Source of the DNA: Escherichia coli
GTDB lineage: Bacteria > Pseudomonadota > Gammaproteobacteria > Enterobacterales > Enterobacteriaceae
Assembly (NCBI RefSeq): GCF_009931435.1
Contig: NZ_CP043414.1
Length of the DNA stretch: 64,000 nt
Strand: one strand, 5' to 3'
Each line of letters begins with the position of its first letter. Positions within the stretch are counted from its first letter, which is position 1. Made by a program: the position numbers and the translations under genes. Of this stretch, positions 30,867 to 62,163 are shown piece by piece. Under the pieces are notes generated by a model that was not told the origin of the DNA, made no database searches, and worked only from the letters and a program-made list of their open reading frames with translations.

Positions 30867-31300
30867 CAGTGTTTCTCCTTTCGCCCGCCAGAGTAAAAAG
30901 CAACCGTTTACGTTCATGAAACTGTTTAAACACATGCTCGTGGAGTGCCAGTTTTTGCAAGGAAGGGGAGTTAGAGACAGGAATTGCGGAGGCAATCACA
31001 TAATCGTGATTAAACTACGAAAATGAGAAGAGAACCAGACAGTGGAATTATCTGCAATTTTCTCATATTGATATTTTATTAATCATTCTGGCATGTAGCT
31101 CTCTCGCATTTAATCAAGTTTATCTGGATAGCTCTCTTTTGGACCTTGATGTTGAAATAATGAAAGCGGCACAGATTGAGGGGTAATAATTTGAACTTAG
31201 TCACAAACTTATAATTAAAAAGTCATTCTACCTAATATATGCCCGTTTATTGCATCGCGAACTTTGAGAAGACATAACTCATTAAATGAAAGGGATGCAA

Positions 31301-38046: not shown

Positions 38047-40917
38047 TTATATTTTTTCCAGCGCGGTGAGTATTTTCTCCGGTGTGAAATGCCATTCGCG
38101 TAACCAGATGCCGCAGGCATCGTGAATTGCGGTAGCAATCGCCGGAGCTGCGCCATTTACACCGATTTCTGAGATTGATTTCGCCCCGAATGGGCCGACT
38201 TTATCGTCGCTCGGCACCAGCACAGCGCGGAAATCACGCGGAATGTCACCAATTTTCGGTGCGCCGTAACTGCGTAAATCACGCGTTAACGGGTGGCCTT
38301 CGGCGTCATAAATGATTTCTTCGCTCATACTGTGCCCGATAGCACGCAGGGTGGCTCCGTAGATTTGTCCCAACGCTAACTCTGGATTGACCGGTGTACC
38401 ACAGTCCAGCAAGGCGTAGAATTTATCCAGGCGGATTTCACCCGTACGTGTGTTGACGGCAACTTCAGCAAAGTTTGCGCCATACGGGAAGGCGAAATCA
38501 GGCGTGATATAACTGGCAGTTCCCACCAGTGAACCAAAACCGGTGCCGGTTTCGCCTTTATGGGCAATATCCCCGAAACTAACTTCGCCTTTCTTGCCGC
38601 GCACGACGCCCGGCGTTGCTAGTTGAACATCTGCCACTGGCTCACCCAACATTTGCGCGCCGTGGAACAGAATTTTATCCCGCAGATTTTCCGCTGCCAA
38701 ACGCGCCGCGTTACCCGAGAAGCAAGTACCGGACGAGGCATATGCGCCTTTATCAAACAACGCATGATCGGTATCACCGGAGATAACATGCACGTCCTGC
38801 GGTGGGCAGTGCAGCACTTCTGCTGCCAGTTTCGTCACCACGGTATCCAGACCAGTACCAATATCCGCACCGCCAGAATGAACAATAAAGGTACCGTCCG
38901 ATTCCAGTTTAATCATGCAGTTAGCCTGATCGATATCCGGGATCCCCGATTTCTGCATGATAATGGCGACGCCGCGACCGATGTGCCAGTCACCATTTTG
39001 CGGTTTTGGTGAAGACCATTGGATCATCTCGCGACCCTGACGCAGGATCTCTTCCAGCGCGCAGCTGGCGGCGGAAGGAACGGAGGTCGGCGCTTTACCT
39101 TCACCAATCGCACCGAGAATTTTCAGCTCTTGCCCTTCGTGTACCCGGTTACGTTCGATAATTTCCAGTTGGTCGATCTGTAACTGTTCAGCCAGTTCCG
39201 CTAATGCCATAGTGATAGCGAAGTTACCTTTCGGTGCACCATAACCCTGATAAGCACCATTTGGACAAATGTTGCTGTAGTAGGTGGTGACCTGGAAATC
39301 GACGTTATCGCACGGATATAACGGCAGCGACAGCGCCGGTCCGTTACATGGTACGGTGAGTGAGTGATTGCCGTAAGGGCCTGTGTTGGCGCGGAAATCC
39401 ATCTTCACGGCCGTCAGGCGACCATCTTTCTTTGCCCCCAGTTTGACGGTGACTTTCGCGACGTGACGAGAGGTGTTAGCAATAAACTCTTCTTCACGGG
39501 TGTAGCGGAACAGTACCGGACGCCCGGTCACGCAGGTTGCCCAGGCGCACACTTCTTCCAGCAGGATGTCCTGTTTAGACCCAAAACCGCCGCCAACTCG
39601 CTCTTTAATTACATGAACTTTATGTTGTTTCATGCCCACGAGGCGCGCGACCTGGCGGCGTAAGTGCCATGGTACCTGGGTGGAGGCGTGGATAACCAGA
39701 CGATCGCCGTCCATACGGGTAAAGCATATATGAGTTTCAGTCGGGCACTGCTGCGCCTGCGTTGAGTTATAGGTTCGCTCAATGATCACATCGGCATCGG
39801 CAAAGCCTTTGTCCATATCGCCAATATGACCATGAATACTGGCGGCGATATTTTTACGGGGGCGAGAACCGATCGGGAAGTTGATGATCATATGCTCGCC
39901 GCGCTGGGCTGCATGGCTGTTATCGTCTTCCAGAGTATCTGGCGCACCAGCAACATACACCACCGGTTCATCGTGCACGACAGGCGCATCTTCCGCCATT
40001 GCCTCGTCAATCGACATTACAGGTTTAAGCACTTCATATTCAACGTCGATGAGCTTCAGTGCTTCGAGCGCAATTTCTTCACTTTCTGCGACGACCGCAG
40101 CAACGCGATCGCCGACGTGACGCATTTTCTTGCCGAACATACGGCGGTCAAGCGGTGACGGTTCCGGTGCGCTCTGACCACCCGGGGTGTAGTAGATATC
40201 CGGGCAATTCAGATGAGTAATAACGTGGACGACGCCTGGTAAGGCTTCAGCTTTGCTGACATCCAGGTGAGTAATCAGTGCGTGAGCGTGAGGGCTACGT
40301 AACATTTTAATGACGCAGGCGTCAGCCGTTACGCGGTCTTCAACATAGCAGGGTTTCGCCTGCACCATTTTTGCGGCATCAGTTTTAGGATAATGCTTAC
40401 CAATGACTTCAAGGTCATCGCGGAAAGTCGGAGCGATATCAATGGTGGCCTGCGGGTTATTTTTACGTGCAACCGCCAGTTCAATGACCTGATAGTATTG
40501 TTGCCAGCCTGCATCGCGACTGAACAAACCAGAAAGCGCGTCGTCGATCTCTTCGCGGGTCGGTGCGGCGATACGCTCGAGCAGATCAGTGATAATCAGA
40601 GCCGCAGCTGGATCGTTATAACCAGACTGCACCACGCCAACATCAACCATTGCCTGTTGAACCAGACTTAACTCGTTCCATTTGCCCAGAGACTCTGCGG
40701 TACGAATATCTGCCTTCTCTAACTGTGCGGCGATAAGCAAGGACGCGTTAACGATATTACCGTTAAAGATAATTGCGTCAGAACCGGCAAACCCGAATCC
40801 ATCATCGCTGTTGCGTACAGAGTGCATTCCCATGTTAAACAACAGCTTTTGCACGTTTTCGCCTGGATTAACGGTTAGCTCCTGAGGCGCGCCATTTAAA
40901 GTAAAGTGGATGATCAT
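38047..40917 (-). CDS. xdhD: Molybdenum-hydroxylase family protein with fused N-terminal 2Fe-2S domain and C-terminal molybdopterin domain (xanthine-dehydrogenase-like)
   Basis: Track ORF 956 aa; aldehyde oxidase/xanthine dehydrogenase family features. Confidence 0.88.
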   Translation of the reverse strand: MIIHFTLNGAPQELTVNPGENVQKLLFNMGMHSVRNSDDGFGFAGSDAIIFNGNIVNASLLIAAQLEKADIRTAESLGKWNELSLVQQAMVDVGVVQSGYNDPAAALIITDLLERIAAPTREEIDDALSGLFSRDAGWQQYYQVIELAVARKNNPQATIDIAPTFRDDLEVIGKHYPKTDAAKMVQAKPCYVEDRVTADACVIKMLRSPHAHALITHLDVSKAEALPGVVHVITHLNCPDIYYTPGGQSAPEPSPLDRRMFGKKMRHVGDRVAAVVAESEEIALEALKLIDVEYEVLKPVMSIDEAMAEDAPVVHDEPVVYVAGAPDTLEDDNSHAAQRGEHMIINFPIGSRPRKNIAASIHGHIGDMDKGFADADVIIERTYNSTQAQQCPTETHICFTRMDGDRLVIHASTQVPWHLRRQVARLVGMKQHKVHVIKERVGGGFGSKQDILLEEVCAWATCVTGRPVLFRYTREEEFIANTSRHVAKVTVKLGAKKDGRLTAVKMDFRANTGPYGNHSLTVPCNGPALSLPLYPCDNVDFQVTTYYSNICPNGAYQGYGAPKGNFAITMALAELAEQLQIDQLEIIERNRVHEGQELKILGAIGEGKAPTSVPSAASCALEEILRQGREMIQWSSPKPQNGDWHIGRGVAIIMQKSGIPDIDQANCMIKLESDGTFIVHSGGADIGTGLDTVVTKLAAEVLHCPPQDVHVISGDTDHALFDKGAYASSGTCFSGNAARLAAENLRDKILFHGAQMLGEPVADVQLATPGVVRGKKGEVSFGDIAHKGETGTGFGSLVGTASYITPDFAFPYGANFAEVAVNTRTGEIRLDKFYALLDCGTPVNPELALGQIYGATLRAIGHSMSEEIIYDAEGHPLTRDLRSYGAPKIGDIPRDFRAVLVPSDDKVGPFGAKSISEIGVNGAAPAIATAIHDACGIWLREWHFTPEKILTALEKI

Positions 40918-46173: not shown

Positions 46174-46254
46174 AACCCTCTCCTTAGCTTATACAGATAT
46201 CATTGAGTGACCGGTGTTGAGAAATCCGGTGGTTTAGGGGGATAGAGCAACAAT

Positions 46255-46271
46255 CGCACCACTCTTGCCAG
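46255..46271 (-). promoter_or_regulatory. Candidate sigma54-like promoter upstream of ygfK: minus strand CTGGCAAGAGTGGTGCG (GG-N10-GC)
   Basis: Read directly; ~85 nt upstream of ygfK ATG; -12 element GTGC deviates from TTGC. Confidence 0.35.
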
Positions 46272-46494
46272 GTTTGGCGGGAAATATAAAAAAATGTGAG
46301 GCGGCTCGAAACTTAAGGGCTTTTTGTGAATGAACTCACAGGTGCCAAATGAGAATTAAAATCACTCCTGGGAATTATTATTACCAGCCCATTTATCACT
46401 TTTTCTCTTTTCTCAAAATCAGTGATTCCTTATCATAATGATAAAGCAGGCTGGATGGTTTAAATATTTGAACGCAAACGTTTAACTACGTTTT

Positions 46495-52077: not shown

Positions 52078-53289
52078 TTATTCGGTTGCCAGCCAGCTTA
52101 ACGGGATTGCAGCGTACATCGCGGCACAGGTCACCAGGTGAGATTTCCAGGTTTTTTCGTTAGGTGCATGCGCTTCAGGTTCTTTACCCGGGCCAAAGCC
52201 GATCACCGGAATGCCGTGACGACCCATGATAGATACGCCGTTAGTTGAGAAGGTCCACTTATCAACAACCGGCGCTTTGCCAAACAGACCTTCGTAGGCA
52301 TTCACCAGTGCTTTAACAGTGAAGTGATCTTCTTCCACTTTCCAGGTCGGGAAGTAGCATTCGGTTGGGTAAACCAGGCCAGTCCAGGACGGACGGTCGT
52401 AGTTGTACATAGAAACAACCGCGTTAGCTTTCTGTACCGCAGGCAGGGCGCGGATTTCGTCCAGCGCGCCTTCCCAGGTTTCGCCCCAGGTCAGACGACG
52501 GTCGATTGAAACTGCGCAGCTATCTGCTACAGCGCAACGGCTTGGGGATGTGAAGAAAATTTCAGAAACGGTGAGGGTGCCTTTGCCGAGGAATTCATCA
52601 TAGCCCAGGCGCTGGGAGAGTTCTTGTAATTCGCCAAGAATCGGACCCATTTTGAAAATGGCGTTGTCACCGCGTTCTGGTGCAGAACCGTGGCAGCTAA
52701 CACCCTGAACATCAATGCGAATTTCCATACGACCGCGTTGACCACGGTATACCTGGCAATCAGTCGGTTCAGTACTGACCACAAATTCCGGGCGAATGCC
52801 GGATTGTTCAATAATGTACTGCCAGCACAGACCGTCGCAGTCTTCTTCCTGCACCGTACCGGTAACCAGCAGGGTATATTCATCTTCCAGACCGAGGTCT
52901 TTAATGATTTTACCGGCATAAACCATAGAGGCCATGCCGCCTTCCTGGTCGGAAGTACCGCGACCACCGATCAGTTCATCAGTTTCCATGCCTTCGTACG
53001 GATCGAAGTCCCAGTTTTTGATGTTGCCAATGCCGACGGTATCAATATGAGCATCCATTGCCACCAGACGCGGGCCGTGACCGATATAACCGAGAACGTT
53101 GCCCATCGGGTCGATTTCAACTTTATCGAAGCCGACTTTTTCCATCTCTTCTTTAATACGATGCACTACGCGTTTTTCGTCGCAGCTTTCGCTGGGGATC
53201 GCAACCATGTCGCGCAGGAAGCGAGTCATGTCTGCCTGGTAATCTTTTGCTTTTTCAAGAATCAGTTTGAATGGAATATTCTTAGCCAT
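52078..53289 (-). CDS. ygeY: M20-family peptidase / amidohydrolase YgeY
   Basis: Track ORF 403 aa. Confidence 0.88.
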
Positions 53290-53346: not shown

Positions 53347-54543
53347 TTAAGGTGCTACAGAGTGTTTGCCTTCCCAGACAACTTCGCGGTAGTGCTTCAC
53401 GTCGGTGTCGCCTTCAGTGCTGATAACCAGCACCACTGCATCTTTGTTCAGCGCTAGTTTTTCCATCAGGCTTTGACGTTGCGGGTGATAATGAACCGCC
53501 GCGAGAACGCCCAAACCGACAGCGCCGGATTCACCGGAGATGATGCGCGGGTCGTTGCCGTACGGATTACCCAGCACGCGCATACCTAATGCGGCAACGC
53601 TGTCCTGGCAGGAGATGAATTGGGTGGCGCAGTTACGTAGGATTTCCCAGCCCAGTGGGTTAGGTTCGCCGCAAGCCAGGCCCGCCATGATAGTGGCCAT
53701 ATCGCCGCCAACGTTGACGATGTCGCCTTTGACACCAGAACGATAGATACAGTCAGCTTTGTCAGGTTCAACAATAATGCTGTGCAGGTTTTGCGGGCTG
53801 TAGACGTCGACCAGATAACCCAGTACGCCGCCGGCCATCGCGCCGACACCGGCTTGCAGCAGAACGTGAGTTGGGGTTACGCCCATTTCACGCATTTGCT
53901 CGACGGCTTCATCTGCCAGAGTGGCATAGCCCTGCATGATCCAGGTTGGGATTTTGGTGTAGCCTTCCCAGGCGGTATCTTGCACCACTTCCCAGCCGTG
54001 TTGCTGCGCGTGTTGCATGGTCAGGCGAACGGTATCGTCATAGTTCATATCAGTGACGATGCACTCGGCTCCGAGGTTCAGAATGGCGTCAACGCGTTCC
54101 TGAGCGGAACCTTTCGGCATGTAAATTACCGCGTTCTGACCGAGTTGCTGTGCTGCCCAGGCAACACCGCGCCCGTGGTTGCCGTCGGTCGTTGTAGCAA
54201 ATGTCATTTTTTCGCCGATGGCATTTTTCAGATGCTCGAATGACAGTGTTTCGATATCAAGATGATATTTTTCGCACAACAACTGAGCGATGGCATATGC
54301 GCCGCCGAGCATTTTGAATGCGTTCAGACCGAATCGTTTTGATTCGTCCTTAACGAGAATTTTTTTCACCCCAAAAAGGTTTGCGAGATCGTCCAGCGCG
54401 CAAAGTGGTGTTGGGCGATAGCCAGCAATTTTCTGGTGGAACTGGCGCGCCAGTTTTGCCTGGCTTTGCGAAAAGAGCGGTGATGTTTCGCCGTTGAAAA
54501 ATTTGTTATCGGCGATATCAATCTTCAATGAGAAAACGGACAT
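53347..54543 (-). CDS. dpaL: PLP-dependent diaminopropionate ammonia-lyase
   Basis: Track ORF 398 aa; recognised YgeX/DpaL sequence. Confidence 0.88.
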   Translation of the reverse strand: MSVFSLKIDIADNKFFNGETSPLFSQSQAKLARQFHQKIAGYRPTPLCALDDLANLFGVKKILVKDESKRFGLNAFKMLGGAYAIAQLLCEKYHLDIETLSFEHLKNAIGEKMTFATTTDGNHGRGVAWAAQQLGQNAVIYMPKGSAQERVDAILNLGAECIVTDMNYDDTVRLTMQHAQQHGWEVVQDTAWEGYTKIPTWIMQGYATLADEAVEQMREMGVTPTHVLLQAGVGAMAGGVLGYLVDVYSPQNLHSIIVEPDKADCIYRSGVKGDIVNVGGDMATIMAGLACGEPNPLGWEILRNCATQFISCQDSVAALGMRVLGNPYGNDPRIISGESGAVGLGVLAAVHYHPQRQSLMEKLALNKDAVVLVISTEGDTDVKHYREVVWEGKHSVAP

Positions 54544-55792: not shown

Positions 55793-55882
55793 AAAGTCCC
55801 GGTAGTGGAATGACAGGCAAAGTGGTTTATTTCACTGTGACTTGCCAAAGTGATTGGTGTTTTCACAGCTATACCAGGGACT

Positions 55883-55899
55883 AACAATAAGTGTGCCAG
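55883..55899 (-). promoter_or_regulatory. Candidate sigma54-like promoter upstream of ygeW: minus strand CTGGCACACTTATTGTT (perfect TGGCAC, -12 TTGT)
   Basis: Read directly; ~95 nt upstream of ygeW ATG; -12 GC replaced by GT. Confidence 0.3.
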
Positions 55900-56267
55900 A
55901 ATTATCCACACGGCTATAAAAGACTAATTTGACGGGTAATGTGTGGTGTAGATCACAAATTGATGCCAGCTTCCGGTTGTGTGTAAAATACGAAAACGTT
56001 TGGCTTTTTTTATTGCGTTGTTTATTTGCTGCTAAGTATCAGAAATAAGATAAAGGGGCAGGCTATCCCTCGTCAGTTTGATAAACTCACCGCTGTAATT
56101 CTCATATTGATATAGAAATGTGATATCTCTTCCATAATTTCATTAGAAAGTGATAAAAACCTTATGTTTTTATCAAAGCCAATTTCGCCTGAGTTAATAT
56201 CATGATGATCTGTGAACCATCAACGTCTTCAATGATCGACTTTTAAGTAAGTCTGGAAGGTAAAGCT

Positions 56268-58046
56268 ATGGAGCTTGCTACTACGCAGTCAGTATTGATG
56301 CAAATTCAACCGACAATTCAGCGTTTTGCCAGAATGCTTGCCAGCGTTTTGCAGCTTGAGGTTGAGATCGTTGATGAAAACTTGTGTCGCGTCGCCGGAA
56401 CGGGCGCGTATGGGAAGTTTCTTGGCCGCCAGTTGAGCGGCAACTCACGCCTGCTCCGCCACGTCCTGGAAACGAAAACTGAAAAAGTTGTGACACAGTC
56501 TCGCTTCGATCCCCTTTGCGAAGGTTGCGATAATAAAGATAATTGTCGCGAAAAAGCATTTCTGGGTACGCCTGTCATTTTACAGGATCGTTGTGTTGGG
56601 GTGATAAGTTTGATTGCAGTTACCCACGAGCAACAAGAACATATCAGTGATAATTTACGCGAGTTTTCTGATTACGTTCGCCATATATCCACCATTTTTG
56701 TTTCGAAACTTCTGGAGGATCAGGGACCAGGAGATAACATCAGTAAAATATTCGCGACCATGATCGATAATATGGATCAGGGCGTATTAGTTGTTGATGA
56801 CGATAATCGGGTTCAGTTTGTTAATCAGACGGCCTTAAAAACACTCGGTGTTGTGCAAAATAATATTATTGGGAAACCTATCCGTTTCAGACCATTAACA
56901 TTTGAGAGTAATTTTACCCACGGACATATGCAACATATTGTTTCGTGGGACGATAAAAGTGAATTAATCATTGGCCAATTGCATAACATTCAGGGCAGAC
57001 AATTATTTTTAATGGCGTTTCACCAATCGCATACCAGTTTTTCTGTAGCAAATGCACCTGATGAACCGCATATTGAACAATTGGTTGGCGAGTGCCGTGT
57101 TATGCGGCAATTAAAACGACTCATTAGCCGTATTGCGCCCAGCCCATCCAGCGTTATGGTGGTTGGTGAAAGCGGCACGGGTAAAGAAGTCGTCGCGCGT
57201 GCAATCCATAAGTTGAGTGGAAGACGAAATAAACCCTTTATTGCTATCAACTGTGCCGCGATTCCTGAACAACTTCTGGAGAGCGAACTATTCGGTTATG
57301 TTAAAGGCGCATTTACTGGCGCTTCAGCCAACGGTAAAACAGGGTTGATTCAGGCGGCGAATACGGGCACGCTGTTTCTCGATGAAATTGGTGATATGCC
57401 ATTAATGTTGCAGGCTAAATTACTGCGCGCTATTGAGGCGCGTGAAATACTGCCGATTGGTGCCAGTAGCCCAATTCAGGTCGACATCCGAATCATTTCT
57501 GCAACTAACCAGAATTTGGCCCAGTTCATTGCCGAAGGTAAATTCCGCGAAGATCTCTTCTACCGACTCAATGTTATCCCGATCACTCTTCCACCGCTGC
57601 GTGAACGTCAGGAAGATATTGAACTGCTGGTACATTACTTTTTACATCTGCATACCCGTCGTCTGGGATCGGTTTATCCTGGCATTGCTCCCGATGTCGT
57701 CGAGATATTGCGTAAGCATCGTTGGCCCGGAAACCTGCGCGAGTTAAGCAATTTAATGGAATATCTGGTTAACGTTGTTCCTTCAGGTGAAGTTATCGAC
57801 AGCACGCTATTGCCTCCAAATTTGCTGAATAATGGCACAACGGAGCAAAGTGATGTAACAGAGGTCAGCGAGGCGCACTTGGCACTCGATGATGCGGGCG
57901 GCACGGCGCTGGAGGAGATGGAAAAGCAAATGATCCGCGAGGCGCTTTCACGTCATAGCAGCAAGAAGCAAGTTGCTGATGAACTGGGTATCGGCATTGC
58001 TACGCTCTATCGCAAGATAAAGAAATATGAGTTGTTAAACGCATAA
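56268..58046 (+). CDS. ygeV: Sigma54-dependent transcriptional activator (bacterial enhancer-binding protein) with N-terminal sensor region, AAA+ domain and C-terminal HTH
   Basis: Track ORF 592 aa; Walker A GESGTGKE, GAFTGA sigma54-contact motif, C-terminal HTH. Confidence 0.9.
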   Translation: MELATTQSVLMQIQPTIQRFARMLASVLQLEVEIVDENLCRVAGTGAYGKFLGRQLSGNSRLLRHVLETKTEKVVTQSRFDPLCEGCDNKDNCREKAFLGTPVILQDRCVGVISLIAVTHEQQEHISDNLREFSDYVRHISTIFVSKLLEDQGPGDNISKIFATMIDNMDQGVLVVDDDNRVQFVNQTALKTLGVVQNNIIGKPIRFRPLTFESNFTHGHMQHIVSWDDKSELIIGQLHNIQGRQLFLMAFHQSHTSFSVANAPDEPHIEQLVGECRVMRQLKRLISRIAPSPSSVMVVGESGTGKEVVARAIHKLSGRRNKPFIAINCAAIPEQLLESELFGYVKGAFTGASANGKTGLIQAANTGTLFLDEIGDMPLMLQAKLLRAIEAREILPIGASSPIQVDIRIISATNQNLAQFIAEGKFREDLFYRLNVIPITLPPLRERQEDIELLVHYFLHLHTRRLGSVYPGIAPDVVEILRKHRWPGNLRELSNLMEYLVNVVPSGEVIDSTLLPPNLLNNGTTEQSDVTEVSEAHLALDDAGGTALEEMEKQMIREALSRHSSKKQVADELGIGIATLYRKIKKYELLNA

Positions 58047-58055
58047 CCTCAGTAA

Positions 58056-58085
58056 ATCCGGCCTGAGTTCAGGCCGGATATCCTT
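58056..58085 (+). terminator. Terminator hairpin after ygeV (bidirectional with xdhC)
   Basis: atccggcctgagttcaggccggat followed by T-rich tail. Confidence 0.65.
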
Positions 58086-58565
58086 TTACTTCGTTTTCTC
58101 GCAATCCAGAACTGTATTTACAATCATCTGATACCCCGTGCAGCGACAAAGATTTCCCGCCAGGCCGCGACGAATCTCCGTAATAGTTAATGGCTTCTCG
58201 CGTGGTTTCGCCAGCATTGCCGTGGTAGCCATAATCAGGCCAGGCGTACAAAACCCGCACTGCACCGCGCCGGATTTCGCATAAGCTTGCTGGACATGAG
58301 AAAGTTTTCCGCCTTTCGCTTCACCTTCCAGCGTGCGGATTTCTTTGCCTTCAGCCCAGGCGGCAAGGTATAAGCAACTGTCTATCGCAGTACCGTCGAC
58401 CAGCACCGTACAGGCACCACATTCACCCACGCAGCAACCTTGCTTGACGCTTAGCAGCCCTTGTTCGCGGAGTAATTCCGAGAGCGGCGTGCCTGGCGCG
58501 GCGTGAAGCTGAAAAGGTATCCCGTTAATGGTGCATGCGATGGTAATTGTTTCGCTGTGATTCAT
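58086..58565 (-). CDS. xdhC: Xanthine dehydrogenase Fe-S subunit (two 2Fe-2S clusters)
   Basis: Track ORF 159 aa; Cys motifs CxxGxCGxC and CGFC. Confidence 0.9.
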
Positions 58566-61802: not shown

Positions 61803-61819
61803 AGGCAAGATTTACGCCA
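61803..61819 (-). promoter_or_regulatory. Candidate sigma54 promoter for xdhABC: minus strand CTGGCGTAAATCTTGCC (TGGC-N8-TTGC spacing exact)
   Basis: Read directly: reverse complement of ggcaagatttacgccag; ~90 nt upstream of xdhA ATG; sigma54 EBP gene ygeV adjacent. Confidence 0.5.
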
Positions 61820-62163
61820 GAAACGACGATAAACGTTAGGGGAGGAAGGAAGTGTGATGACGTTAAAAAAATACAGATACGATACGAAACAGGACCCTGA
61901 ATAGGGACAGTGATACGTATCAATATGAGTGGCGATAAAATCAATGTGATAAATCAGGATTATTACGCATCAGGATGGGAAATAGGGTAAAAGAGTCAGG
62001 AACTTCGATACCACCACAGCAAATATTTTGCTTATGATACTTCCCTTTGCCAAATGAAATTAATCTCTTTCTCAATTACCTCGTTTTTCCAGAAGCGAGA
62101 GATTGGGTATCCAGAGGCTGGCTGCTATGATATGGCGTCTTGTTTTTTAAGCGAGGAAAGATT

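Follow-up and report, generated by a model that had tools for sequence, protein, structure and literature searches.

The gene analyzed here lies in a 64,000-nucleotide stretch of Escherichia coli DNA (hereafter, the window), where the ORF list and its translation give an open reading frame of 592 aa, ATG to stop, at 56268..58046 on the plus strand. This frame corresponds to ygeV, already known from E. coli, whose protein has the alias IsrR; the region is present in 5281 of 5426 complete E. coli genomes and is labeled "ygeV: sigma-54 interaction domain-containing protein". The domains of YgeV follow the order GAF, PAS, AAA+, and HTH.

56268..58046, plus strand: ygeV (isrR) coding sequence, 592 aa plus stop (ORF list, E. 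coli annotation)
56289..56723, plus strand: GAF domain, residues 8-152 (GAF fold)
56736..57023, plus strand: PAS domain, residues about 157-252 (Pfam, AlphaFold2 model)
57081..57851, plus strand: sigma-54 interaction AAA+ domain and lid, residues 272-528 (Pfam)
57165-57188, plus strand: Walker A motif GESGTGKE, residue 300 (motif position)
57306-57323, plus strand: GAFTGA loop, residue 347 (motif position)
57909..58028, plus strand: Fis-type HTH, residues 548-587 (Pfam HTH_8, E 7.8e-13)
58056..58079, unstranded: GC-rich hairpin with a 10-bp stem (terminator scan; consensus match only), likely a terminator, between the convergent ygeV and xdhC

The sequence-only reading of this locus had described a clear AAA+ core and HTH, and Pfam bears this out, with Sigma54_activat at residues 272-439 (E 8.6e-71) and AAA_lid_14 at residues 445-528 (E 1.9e-21). 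The protein side of a sigma-54 enhancer-binding protein (bEBP) is in place, that is, an AAA+ domain with Walker A and GAFTGA motifs together with a Fis-type HTH. On the target side, the DNA sequence offers -24/-12 promoters with upstream inverted repeats. The same reading had proposed that the N-terminal region of about 280 aa is a GAF/PAS-like sensor without a receiver. The sensor role held, the length proved closer to 270 aa, and the domain search of this region returned GAF and PAS with no canonical receiver; Response_reg (PF00072) had no match in residues 1-268, even at E<=10. Residues from about 8 to 152 belong to the GAF family by fold, and the PAS domain is assigned on both sequence signature and fold. 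Specifically, the Pfam models PAS_8 (30.5 bits, cut-off 21.8) and PAS (26.2 bits, cut-off 22.6) cover only the N-terminal half of that domain, similarity to the WalK PAS domain 4mn5 is weak (E 0.0016), and residues 157-252 form helices and six strands in the full-length AlphaFold2 model. The earlier interpretation is supported, but it is not new. Finally, the best NCBIfam match was PrdR, the proline reductase activator (NF041552), which aligned with the AAA+ and HTH domains (residues 268-588). We rejected membership in that family: the score was 384.8 bits against a cut-off of 795, about half, and the sensor of C. difficile PrdR (CD3245) is CBS-CBS-PAS rather than GAF-PAS. When ten YgeV family members were scanned singly against NCBIfam, none scored above any cut-off.

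Previous work has tied YgeV to a purine-urate regulon consisting of xdhABC, ygeWXY-hyuA, ygfK-ssnA-ygfM-xdhD, and uacT. Upstream of these genes, we identified predicted sigma-54 promoters accompanied by candidate UAS elements:

55883..55898, minus strand: sigma-54 promoter of ygeW (ygeW-ygeX-ygeY-hyuA-yqeA), TGGCACACTTATTGTT
56079..56133, unstranded: candidate YgeV UAS block in the ygeV-ygeW spacer, TGATAAA-N14-TCTCATATTGATA-N6-TGTGATA
56100-56112, unstranded: core inverted repeat of the ygeV-ygeW UAS, about 200 bp upstream of the ygeW sigma-54 promoter
61804..61819, minus strand: sigma-54 promoter of xdhABC, TGGCGTAAATCTTGCC (GG-N10-GC scan, sequence reading)
61917..61929, minus strand: UAS copy upstream of xdhA, ACTCATATTGATA, an exact 12-mer
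46246..46261, minus strand: sigma-54 promoter of ygfK-ssnA-ygfM-xdhD, TGGTGCGATTGTTGCT
46430..46444, unstranded: perfect palindromic UAS upstream of ygfK, TTATCATAATGATAA, about 170 bp from the sigma-54 promoter
30935..30950, minus strand: sigma-54 promoter of uacT, TGGCACTCCACGAGCA
31061..31073, unstranded: UAS copy in the uacT-ygfT spacer, TCTCATATTGATA, about 110 bp upstream of the uacT sigma-54 promoter

The ygeW promoter has one mismatch to TGGCAC-N5-TTGCW, and the whole site, including its unusual -12 element TTGTT, is conserved in Raoultella, K. michiganensis, L003, and L004. In published data, the ygeV-ygeW spacer was bound by sigma-54 RNA polymerase in genomic SELEX (PMC8743547), and sigma-54 promoters have been reported upstream of xdhABC (PMC10602906). 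A search of the uacT-ygfT spacer for a ygfT sigma-54 promoter, by GG-N10-GC scan and inspection, found none at the correct spacing.

Several observations single out the inverted repeat. When the spacers of E. coli, Raoultella, and K. michiganensis were aligned, the block at 56079..56133 was the longest and best-conserved element upstream of the ygeW promoter. The window contains exactly four copies of the 12-mer CTCATATTGATA, of which three lie upstream of sigma-54 promoters; with up to two mismatches, 14 copies were observed versus 4.16 expected, and TMTCA-N3-TGATA occurs at 4 sites versus 0.13 expected. The xdhA copy, about 100 bp upstream of its promoter, has TATCAC half-sites on its flanks. 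The ygfK core TTATCATAATGATAA recurs unchanged in K. michiganensis, at the ygeV-ygeW site, and in C. botulinum, as the DioR site ATTTATCATAATGATAAGG. Intragenic candidate sites lie at 54255 and 53040. Furthermore, a relative with 41% identity over the N-terminal query carries copies of the motif upstream of ygeW-, xdh-, and ygfK-like sigma-54 promoters. We give little weight to k-mer enrichment in the four promoter regions, which is confounded by AT content (63% versus 49%). Conserved in Raoultella and Klebsiella and matching predicted DioR sites, TTATCA-N3-TGATAA (E. coli variant TCTCATATTGATA) is most likely the YgeV enhancer, a candidate placed about 100-200 bp upstream of four sigma-54 promoters. 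This putative four-promoter assignment in E. coli goes beyond the literature that we searched, in which the UAS sequence retrieved unrelated primers only. A point against the assignment to YgeV is that the AT-rich palindrome is partly Fur-box-like.

In Clostridiales, the orthologous group DioR (Nie et al. 2019, PMC6615313) consists of sigma-54 enhancer-binding proteins, and YgeV is its counterpart among enterobacteria. The two share the GAF-PAS-AAA+-HTH architecture, the GAF-PAS part of which was already published for DioR (PMC6615313). The predicted DioR regulon contains dpaL(ygeX), ygeW-ygfK-ssnA-ygeY, pbuX, xdhABC, and yqeB/yqeC (PMC6615313), and its predicted UAS is TTATCA-N3-TGATAA, with the core of one site equal to the palindrome upstream of E. 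coli ygfK (Table S3, PMC6615313). That regulon is a comparative prediction, and DioR has no experimental characterization (PMC11448449). Unlike the DioR sites, the E. coli UAS copies are mostly the asymmetric TCTCA-TAT-TGATA. YgeV has the hallmarks of the DioR group: a GAF-PAS bEBP, linkage to ygeW, dpaL, ygeY, ygfK, ssnA, and xdh, and the UAS. The homologous proteins that a protein search retrieved were mostly short and partial. Relatives with 35-41% N-terminal identity to YgeV adjoin the same ygeW/X/Y-hyuA-xdh-ygfK-ssnA genes, and the HTH of urate-cluster-linked relatives is 63-70% identical to that of YgeV. Gene linkage and the shared motif are what argue for orthology between YgeV and DioR.

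The sensor module contains a conserved cysteine triad. The CEGC that had been pointed out at residue 84 is confirmed and belongs to an invariant C-x2-C-x5-C; a second proposed feature, CxxD, found no support.

56517..56546, plus strand: triad C84-x2-C87-x5-C93, in the GAF loop between strands beta3 and beta4

Cysteines occupy positions 84, 87, and 93 in every one of 86 diverse full-length relatives (pairwise identity at most about 50%) and in 60/60 sequences of a second alignment. Across the family, the GAF region aligns essentially without gaps, and its median identity to YgeV is 30% versus 17% for the PAS, the least conserved domain. A "floating" fourth cysteine ligand at position 100, 109, or 117 was rejected, being present in only 50/86 members; 16 of the 86 have no GAF-domain cysteine besides the triad. 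Acidic residues are the candidates, with D/E31 conserved in 95%, D36 in 90%, and E/D95 in 79% of the 86 members.

The apparent triad-less relatives are not real exceptions. In P0054 and P0074, cysteine is replaced by tyrosine throughout as part of a general G-to-A pattern, which is a bisulfite-like artifact, and P0170 is an unrelated protein of 1566 aa. P0143 (C-x3-C-x5-C) and P0175 (C-x2-C-x8-C) are spacing variants, and in P0166 the triad loop is absent. Gene contexts in the wider family of 880 representatives, which we sampled through 10 look-ups of encoding contigs, place distant members with the triad or a close spacing variant in other nitrogen-compound catabolic operons. Since members controlling other operons keep the triad, it is not specific to one substrate.

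Taken together, these patterns make a metal or redox cofactor at the GAF triad likely. Fe-S sensors are recognized by three or four conserved cysteine ligands, and the triad supplies three in 86/86 members. Its x2/x5 spacing is that of Cys20, Cys23, and Cys29 of FNR, a [4Fe-4S] oxygen sensor of the CRP family that uses Cys122 as its fourth ligand (PMC4601167). YgeV has no fourth conserved cysteine, and its fourth-ligand candidates are D/E31, D36, and E95. The fold and context of FNR are unrelated to those of YgeV, and we treat the resemblance in spacing as a lead, not as evidence of homology. The combination of triad invariance, position in a GAF loop, and FNR-like spacing goes beyond the literature that we searched.

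A parallel is OrpR of Desulfovibrio vulgaris, whose sensor carries a redox-sensing [4Fe-4S] cluster and represses until signaled (PMC8359166). Like YgeV, OrpR has at its bEBP N terminus three fully conserved cysteines and a conserved acidic residue, and repression of its AAA+ domain by the sensor is our proposed working model for YgeV. The OrpR cluster, however, is in a PAS domain (C-x8-C-x3-C), whereas the YgeV triad, known from sequence only, is in a GAF loop. There is precedent for cofactors in GAF domains: a [3Fe-4S] cluster was reconstituted in that of VnfA, which has conserved cysteines (PMC9542535); that of CSK binds a [3Fe-4S] cluster (PMC6949291); and that of NorR holds a mononuclear iron center. 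VnfA and AnfA (Azotobacter) and NorR (E. coli) resemble YgeV in fusing a GAF sensor to AAA+ and HTH domains, but they lack a PAS between GAF and AAA+. In NorR and AnfA, the GAF domain represses the AAA+ domain. For NorR, the listed ligands include one Cys and are otherwise mainly Asp and Arg, in contrast to the YgeV triad. The VnfA cysteines are in the N-terminal part of the regulatory domain, reportedly outside the beta3-beta4 loop in which the YgeV triad is found. In a profile alignment, the GAF domain of Aquifex aeolicus Nlh1 (of the Nlh1/Nlh2, NifA GAF group) has no cysteine at the triad positions.

It is possible, if somewhat short of probable, that the GAF insert of YgeV/DioR-type proteins ligates an Fe-S cluster through three cysteines and an acidic or exogenous fourth ligand, and that the GAF-PAS family consists of dual sensors. 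Cys84, Cys87, and Cys93, held in a rigid, gap-free GAF domain, would most likely ligate an Fe-S cluster or other metal, with the fourth ligand coming from D/E31, D36, or E95 or from outside the protein. The cofactor would report low redox potential or anaerobiosis, a signal that would suit the regulon because its products include oxygen-sensitive Fe-S enzymes linked to selenium-dependent molybdenum cofactor genes. The variable PAS, or else the GAF pocket, may bind a pathway metabolite, such as urate, xanthine, 2,8-dioxopurine, or a later intermediate. We assign redox to GAF and metabolite to PAS provisionally, on their relative conservation. The named relatives of YgeV come from gut-associated anaerobes and facultative anaerobes. 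Many family members are from strict anaerobes, for which oxygen sensing as such is less obviously useful; OrpR exemplifies redox sensing in such a setting (PMC8359166).

Three invariant ligands by themselves would also fit zinc in a structural role or a thiol switch at the CxxC. In the first case, the metal would merely stiffen the GAF loop, and a purine-derived molecule in the GAF or PAS pocket would be the sole signal. CxxC-containing loops commonly bind zinc, and the fixed loop length in a GAF domain that aligns without gaps is what a structural site would produce. A purine-only signal would also agree with the description of the homologous C. sporogenes gene cluster as uric-acid inducible, and GAF and PAS are classical small-molecule binders (PMC6615313). 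We nevertheless consider this explanation unlikely. YgeV has three invariant ligands, with no other cysteine in the 16 members mentioned above, while structural zinc sites have four as a rule. Retention of the triad, with one spacing variant, across members with different substrates while the sensor diverges fits a structural role and a common signal equally well. The second case, in which the CxxC pair and C93 form a metal-free thiol/disulfide (or sulfenate or persulfide) switch, is decidedly improbable: the spacing is unlike that of fRMsr, three invariant cysteines with FNR-like spacing and conserved acidic residues fit a cluster better, and the family lives mainly in reducing, anaerobic cytoplasms.

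With the signal set out in this way, a model for the regulon can be proposed. The HTH of YgeV most likely binds the TTATCA-N3-TGATAA repeats upstream of ygeW(XY-hyuA-yqeA), xdhABC, ygfK-ssnA-ygfM-xdhD, and uacT, and the AAA+ ring, through ATP and the GAFTGA loop, would then open the complexes at sigma-54 promoters, thereby turning on the anaerobic breakdown of urate and purines. These binding and opening steps are drawn from sequence and literature. The domain analysis shows that the N-terminal GAF-PAS module, and not phosphorylation, gates activity; by analogy with NorR, Nlh2, and OrpR, the module would repress the AAA+ domain until signaled. If so, YgeV without residues 1-265 should be a constitutive activator. 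CRP and PurR-like sites in the same spacers may add catabolite and purine-pool control; urate degradation is glucose repressed, and the spacer has a CRP site. In agreement with the model, a passage in 10.1101/2022.07.24.501321 cites ygeV as required for anaerobic, formate-dependent urate use, and a ygeV mutant has reduced ygfT expression, with a YgeV iModulon recognized as well (PMC10602906).

A different role has been suggested under the name IsrR, in which YgeV would sense indole directly through GAF or PAS and mainly control virulence (LEE) genes. Indole strongly induces ygeV mRNA in EHEC, and in isrR mutants both LEE expression and the virulence of C. rodentium are changed (PMC9426417). 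We give this role very little credence. The same study shows indole control of ygeV transcription, not binding, and itself leaves the indole response of IsrR and its direct action on LEE as questions, whereas gene linkage, UAS, and sigma-54 promoters tie YgeV/DioR to purine and urate genes from Clostridia to E. coli. Moreover, its label for the protein, "orphan response regulator" (PMC9426417), which would imply phosphorylation by a histidine kinase encoded elsewhere, is wrong: confident GAF and PAS folds fill residues 8-252, the receiver search described above came up empty, and P0009, a 251-aa public protein fusing YgeV residues 1-178 to a receiver domain, is a chimera, encoded on a metagenome contig of 865 bp, whose two parts meet at a peptide they share, VLVVDD.

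We place the probability of the whole purine-urate model, comprising YgeV architecture, UAS, regulon, and two-input GAF-PAS gating, at roughly 0.6. It accounts neither for the activation that the iModulon study reports when cells lacking BaeR or CpxR are treated with ethanol (PMC10602906) nor for the induction of ygeV mRNA by indole.

YgeV is apparently the main transcriptional switch of the urate pathway in E. coli. Gut bacteria degrade uric acid via the ygeW/ygfK/xdh cluster, an activity for which links to the urate load of the host and to gout are now described, and E. coli strains are being engineered in which the ygeV-ygeW control region is replaced (10.1101/2025.05.19.654654). Our analysis opens the nature of its signal to direct testing through three results: the sensor combines GAF and PAS domains and carries an invariant cysteine triad; the probable enhancer, TTATCA-N3-TGATAA, is conserved from Clostridia to E. 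coli; and the protein is mislabeled as an orphan response regulator. If the triad does ligate an Fe-S cluster, it would explain why urate degradation in E. coli is anaerobic only, and a widespread GAF-based redox sensor would join the few known Fe-S enhancer-binding proteins. If the dual-sensor reading is also true, GAF would read the redox or oxygen state and PAS a pathway metabolite, across several hundred clusters of GAF-PAS sigma-54 activator sequences. Such proteins would represent a new cofactor-bearing GAF subfamily that controls the removal of urate in the gut.

The evidence strongly supports YgeV as a GAF-PAS-AAA+-HTH enhancer-binding protein that is not controlled by phosphorylation and whose targets in the purine/urate regulon are sigma-54 promoters that share an upstream inverted repeat. 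We give this combination of architecture and regulon a probability of about 0.9. The gene is an ATG-to-stop open reading frame of 592 codons at 56268..58046 (+) (ORF list and translation), annotated as ygeV, "sigma-54 interaction domain-containing protein," and among 5426 complete E. coli genomes, 5281 contain its region (megablast). Divergent from it lies ygeW-dpaL(ygeX)-ygeY-hyuA-arcC(yqeA), downstream and convergent is xdhABC, and farther off in the window are ygfK-ssnA-ygfM-xdhD, xanQ, guaD, ghxQ, ygfS, ygfT, and uacT. Judged from the identities of 55793-58100, which reach at least 99% in only 10 of the 5281 genomes and 95-99% in the remainder (megablast), the window appears to represent an uncommon E. 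coli lineage.

Previous studies have described several properties of this gene and its relatives. In E. coli, ygeV is among the genes with a role in formate-dependent use of urate under anaerobic conditions (Iwadate and Kato 2019, as relayed in 10.1101/2022.07.24.501321), a ygeV mutant has lower ygfT expression (PMC10602906), and the ygeV-ygeW spacer is bound by sigma-54 RNA polymerase in genomic SELEX (PMC8743547). DioR, a clostridial group of sigma-54 activators, has a GAF-PAS architecture, a function listed as "unknown," and a predicted regulon of dpaL-pyrC-argE, pbuX, ygeW-ygfK-ssnA-ygeY, xdhABC, and yqeB/yqeC (Nie et al. 2019, PMC6615313); it was still termed uncharacterized in 2024 (PMC11448449). 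A 2022 mBio paper, which reported that indole induces ygeV mRNA and described ygeV mutant phenotypes, gave YgeV the name IsrR, for "indole sensing regulator," and called it an "orphan RR," with no binding result and the mechanism left open (PMC9426417). We found no report of the YgeV effector in the literature.

Domain searches and structural modeling agree on the layout of the protein. Pfam places Sigma54_activat at residues 272-439 (E 8.6e-71), AAA_lid_14 at 445-528, HTH_8 at 548-587, and PAS_8/PAS, above curated cutoffs, at 162-205, while GAF matches at 44-126 are subthreshold only. The full-length model (pLDDT 88.9) has four domains joined by low-confidence linkers:

residues 10-152, GAF domain
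residues 157-252, PAS fold
residues 277-520, AAA+ domain
residues 546-586, HTH domain

In a 60-sequence alignment of the first 158 residues, GAF_2 matched 57 members and SpoVT_C, a GAF-like domain, matched 47 (both counted at E<=0.1), and the resulting profile matched the GAF domains of the Aquifex sigma-54 activators Nlh1/Nlh2 (4g3w, E 6e-5). When residues 1-268 were searched exhaustively with phmmer against 1.84 billion cluster representatives, 880 relatives were recovered at E<=1e-3, of which 401 reached E<=1e-10; among the best 150 matches, the complete sequences (85) are mostly 540-625 aa and laid out like YgeV. The sequence-only reading had recognized the AAA+ core and HTH, which the Pfam matches and the motifs GESGTGKE (residue 300) and GAFTGA (347) bear out. 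Its proposal of a non-receiver, GAF/PAS-like sensor is correct because Pfam, the profile, and the model give GAF and PAS domains and no receiver. A canonical receiver, the alternative it had named, fails, since residues 1-268 gave none even at E<=10, and the same result contradicts the label "orphan RR."

Four operons are preceded by a sigma-54 promoter match:

55883-55898 (-), ygeW promoter, TGGCACACTTATTGTT
61804-61819 (-), xdhA promoter, TGGCGTAAATCTTGCC
46246-46261 (-), ygfK promoter, TGGTGCGATTGTTGCT
30935-30950 (-), uacT promoter, TGGCACTCCACGAGCA

The ygeW promoter has a noncanonical -12 element, TTGTT (GT instead of GC), that is conserved in 5 of 5 loci, namely the window, Raoultella (L009), K. 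michiganensis (L010), and two distant loci (L003, L004). The 64-kb window contains exactly four copies of the 12-mer CTCATATTGATA, three of which precede the ygeW, xdhA, and uacT promoters by 100-200 bp; allowing up to 2 mismatches gave 14 matches versus 4.16 expected. The inverted repeat TMTCA-N3-TGATA has 4 sites versus 0.13 expected, one of which, upstream of ygfK, is perfectly palindromic (TTATCATAATGATAA). When E. coli, Raoultella, and K. michiganensis were aligned, a single long block, TGATAAA-N14-T(C/A)TCATA(T/A)TGATA-N6-TGTGATA, was kept upstream of the promoter in an otherwise poorly conserved ygeV-ygeW spacer, and motif copies also stand upstream of sigma-54 promoters at the locus of a 41%-identical relative. 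The UAS predicted for DioR in Clostridia (PMC6615313), exemplified by ATTTATCATAATGATAAGG ahead of C. botulinum ygeW-ygfK-ssnA-ygeY and by TGAGAA-type half-sites in C. difficile, matches the E. coli motif. This match is evidence for linking YgeV with DioR as well as for the inverted repeat as the predicted YgeV enhancer.

Other sequence features were found in the same region. Further motif copies in coding sequence, a palindrome (TATCAAGATGATA) at 54255-54267 in ygeX/dpaL and an exact CTCATATTGATA at 53040-53051 in ygeY, could be internal enhancers or chance matches. Likewise, either an internal promoter or coincidence may explain a near-consensus sigma-54 match inside xdhD (38467-38482 (-), TGGCGCAAACTTTGCT, 1 mismatch), which lies some 600 bp upstream of xanQ. 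Additional binding sites may be provided by a perfect inverted repeat, TGATAAAAAC-N5-GTTTTTATCA, at 56151-56175 in the ygeV-ygeW spacer and by a 31-nt imperfect one at 30999-31090 in the uacT-ygfT spacer, which includes the enhancer copy. In the Raoultella (LR131271.1) and K. michiganensis (UGMS01000003.1) loci, ygeV and most adjoining urate-cluster genes are broken into short ORFs, reflecting either low-quality assemblies or pseudogenization of the urate cluster.

CRP and PurR-like boxes would also contribute to control. A CRP-like site, TGTGG-TGTAGA-TCACA, at 55942-55957 in the ygeV-ygeW spacer agrees with the "native Crp-binding site" and glucose repression described previously (10.1101/2025.05.19.654654). 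It is followed by a sigma-70-like promoter, TTGATG-18-TAAAAT, at 55960-55989 (+) that may drive ygeV. The PurR operator has the consensus ACGCAAACGTTTGCGT, to which the window holds only three matches with up to 3 mismatches, versus 0.56 expected:

30898-30913, uacT-ygfT region, between the sigma-54 promoter and the uacT start codon
46472-46487, region upstream of ygfK
55990-56005, ygeV-ygeW region

Their placement suggests that PurR may also control the urate regulon.

The sensor carries a cysteine triad, C84-x2-C87-x5-C93, which contains the CEGC feature picked out in the sequence-only reading and present at residue 84. All three cysteines are invariant (86/86) in an alignment of YgeV with 85 full-length representatives whose mutual identity is, by construction, at most about 50%; G111 is the sole further invariant residue of the sensor region. 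The triad sits between GAF strands beta3 (73-75) and beta4 (97-105), in a nearly gap-free region with a median identity to YgeV of 30% versus 17% for PAS. Conserved acidic positions are 31 (D/E, 95%), 36 (D, 90%), and 95 (E/D, 79%). No fourth conserved cysteine was found in the 86 sequences, 16 of which have no other cysteine in the domain.

Apparent exceptions among the best 150 matches leave this invariance unweakened. They include variants in the spacing (C-x3-C-x5-C and C-x2-C-x8-C), a protein that lacks the loop, and an unrelated 1566-aa protein. Two YgeV-like entries, P0054 and P0074, are database artifacts in which every Cys is Tyr within global G-to-A changes (C to Y, G to N, E to K), a pattern that looks like bisulfite-treated DNA. 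Another artifact, P0009, is a chimera, carried on an 865-bp contig, that fuses YgeV residues 1-178 to a receiver domain at VLVVDD.

Several cofactor-bearing sensors offer precedents. The x2/x5 spacing equals that of FNR cluster ligands Cys20, Cys23, and Cys29 (PMC4601167). OrpR, whose PAS domain has three conserved Cys and a D/E, binds a redox-sensing [4Fe-4S] cluster, and the sensor represses its AAA+ domain (PMC8359166). VnfA, with conserved GAF cysteines, was reconstituted with a [3Fe-4S] cluster (PMC9542535), the GAF domain of the CSK sensor kinase binds a [3Fe-4S] cluster (PMC6949291), and that of NorR has a mononuclear iron center. Nlh1 lacks cysteines at the positions aligned with the YgeV triad. 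By analogy with NorR, Nlh2, and OrpR, the YgeV sensor would repress the AAA+ domain until signaled. An Fe-S or metal center held by the triad would report reducing, anaerobic conditions, while the PAS domain or GAF pocket would bind urate, xanthine, 2,8-dioxopurine, or a later intermediate. That the triad binds a metal of some kind, structural zinc included, is somewhat probable; an Fe-S cluster specifically is a tentative assignment, at slightly less than even odds. Alternatively, the cysteines could form a purely structural zinc site, which we consider unlikely, or a thiol switch, which is improbable.

The genomic setting of relatives bears on what the sensor domains may detect. Two relatives (41% and 35% identity over the N-terminal query) adjoin the same ygeW/X/Y-hyuA-xdh-ygfK-ssnA genes, and the purine cluster around a third is a different one, encoding three amidohydrolases along with two xanthine/uracil permeases and two molybdenum hydroxylases. 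More remote members, at 23-26% identity in the N-terminal part, adjoin other nitrogen-compound catabolic sets: dpaL-like, M20 peptidase, ECF transporter, racemase, and hydantoinase-like genes; an Na/Ala symporter, SHMT-like gene, and M20; an SNF symporter, creatinase/M24, and M20; or a PALP enzyme, amidohydrolase, and FTCD_C. Across these pathways of differing substrates the triad is kept (with a spacing variant in one member), which argues for a common GAF cofactor or signal and for an input specific to each pathway elsewhere, the variable PAS domain being its simplest location. The named relatives, a small sample, come from anaerobes or facultative anaerobes (Clostridia, Peptostreptococcaceae, C. 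difficile, Fusobacterium, Cetobacterium, Aeromonas, and Enterobacterales). On a metagenomic contig (L007, 2699-6187), a dpaL-like gene neighbors two sigma-54 activators (572 and 579 aa) that are tandem paralogues; the first is a YgeV-family member, the second matches SpoVT_C, and they could form a heteromeric pair of the kind described for RedR1/RedR2 and the VnfA paralogues.

The finding is real and its interpretation correct, but YgeV is a known gene whose architecture has been published for its clostridial counterparts. Our analysis adds the invariant, FNR-spaced GAF triad and the DioR enhancer motif in E. coli, and it corrects the label "orphan response regulator." Together, these lead to direct experiments on a regulator that is important for urate degradation in the gut.
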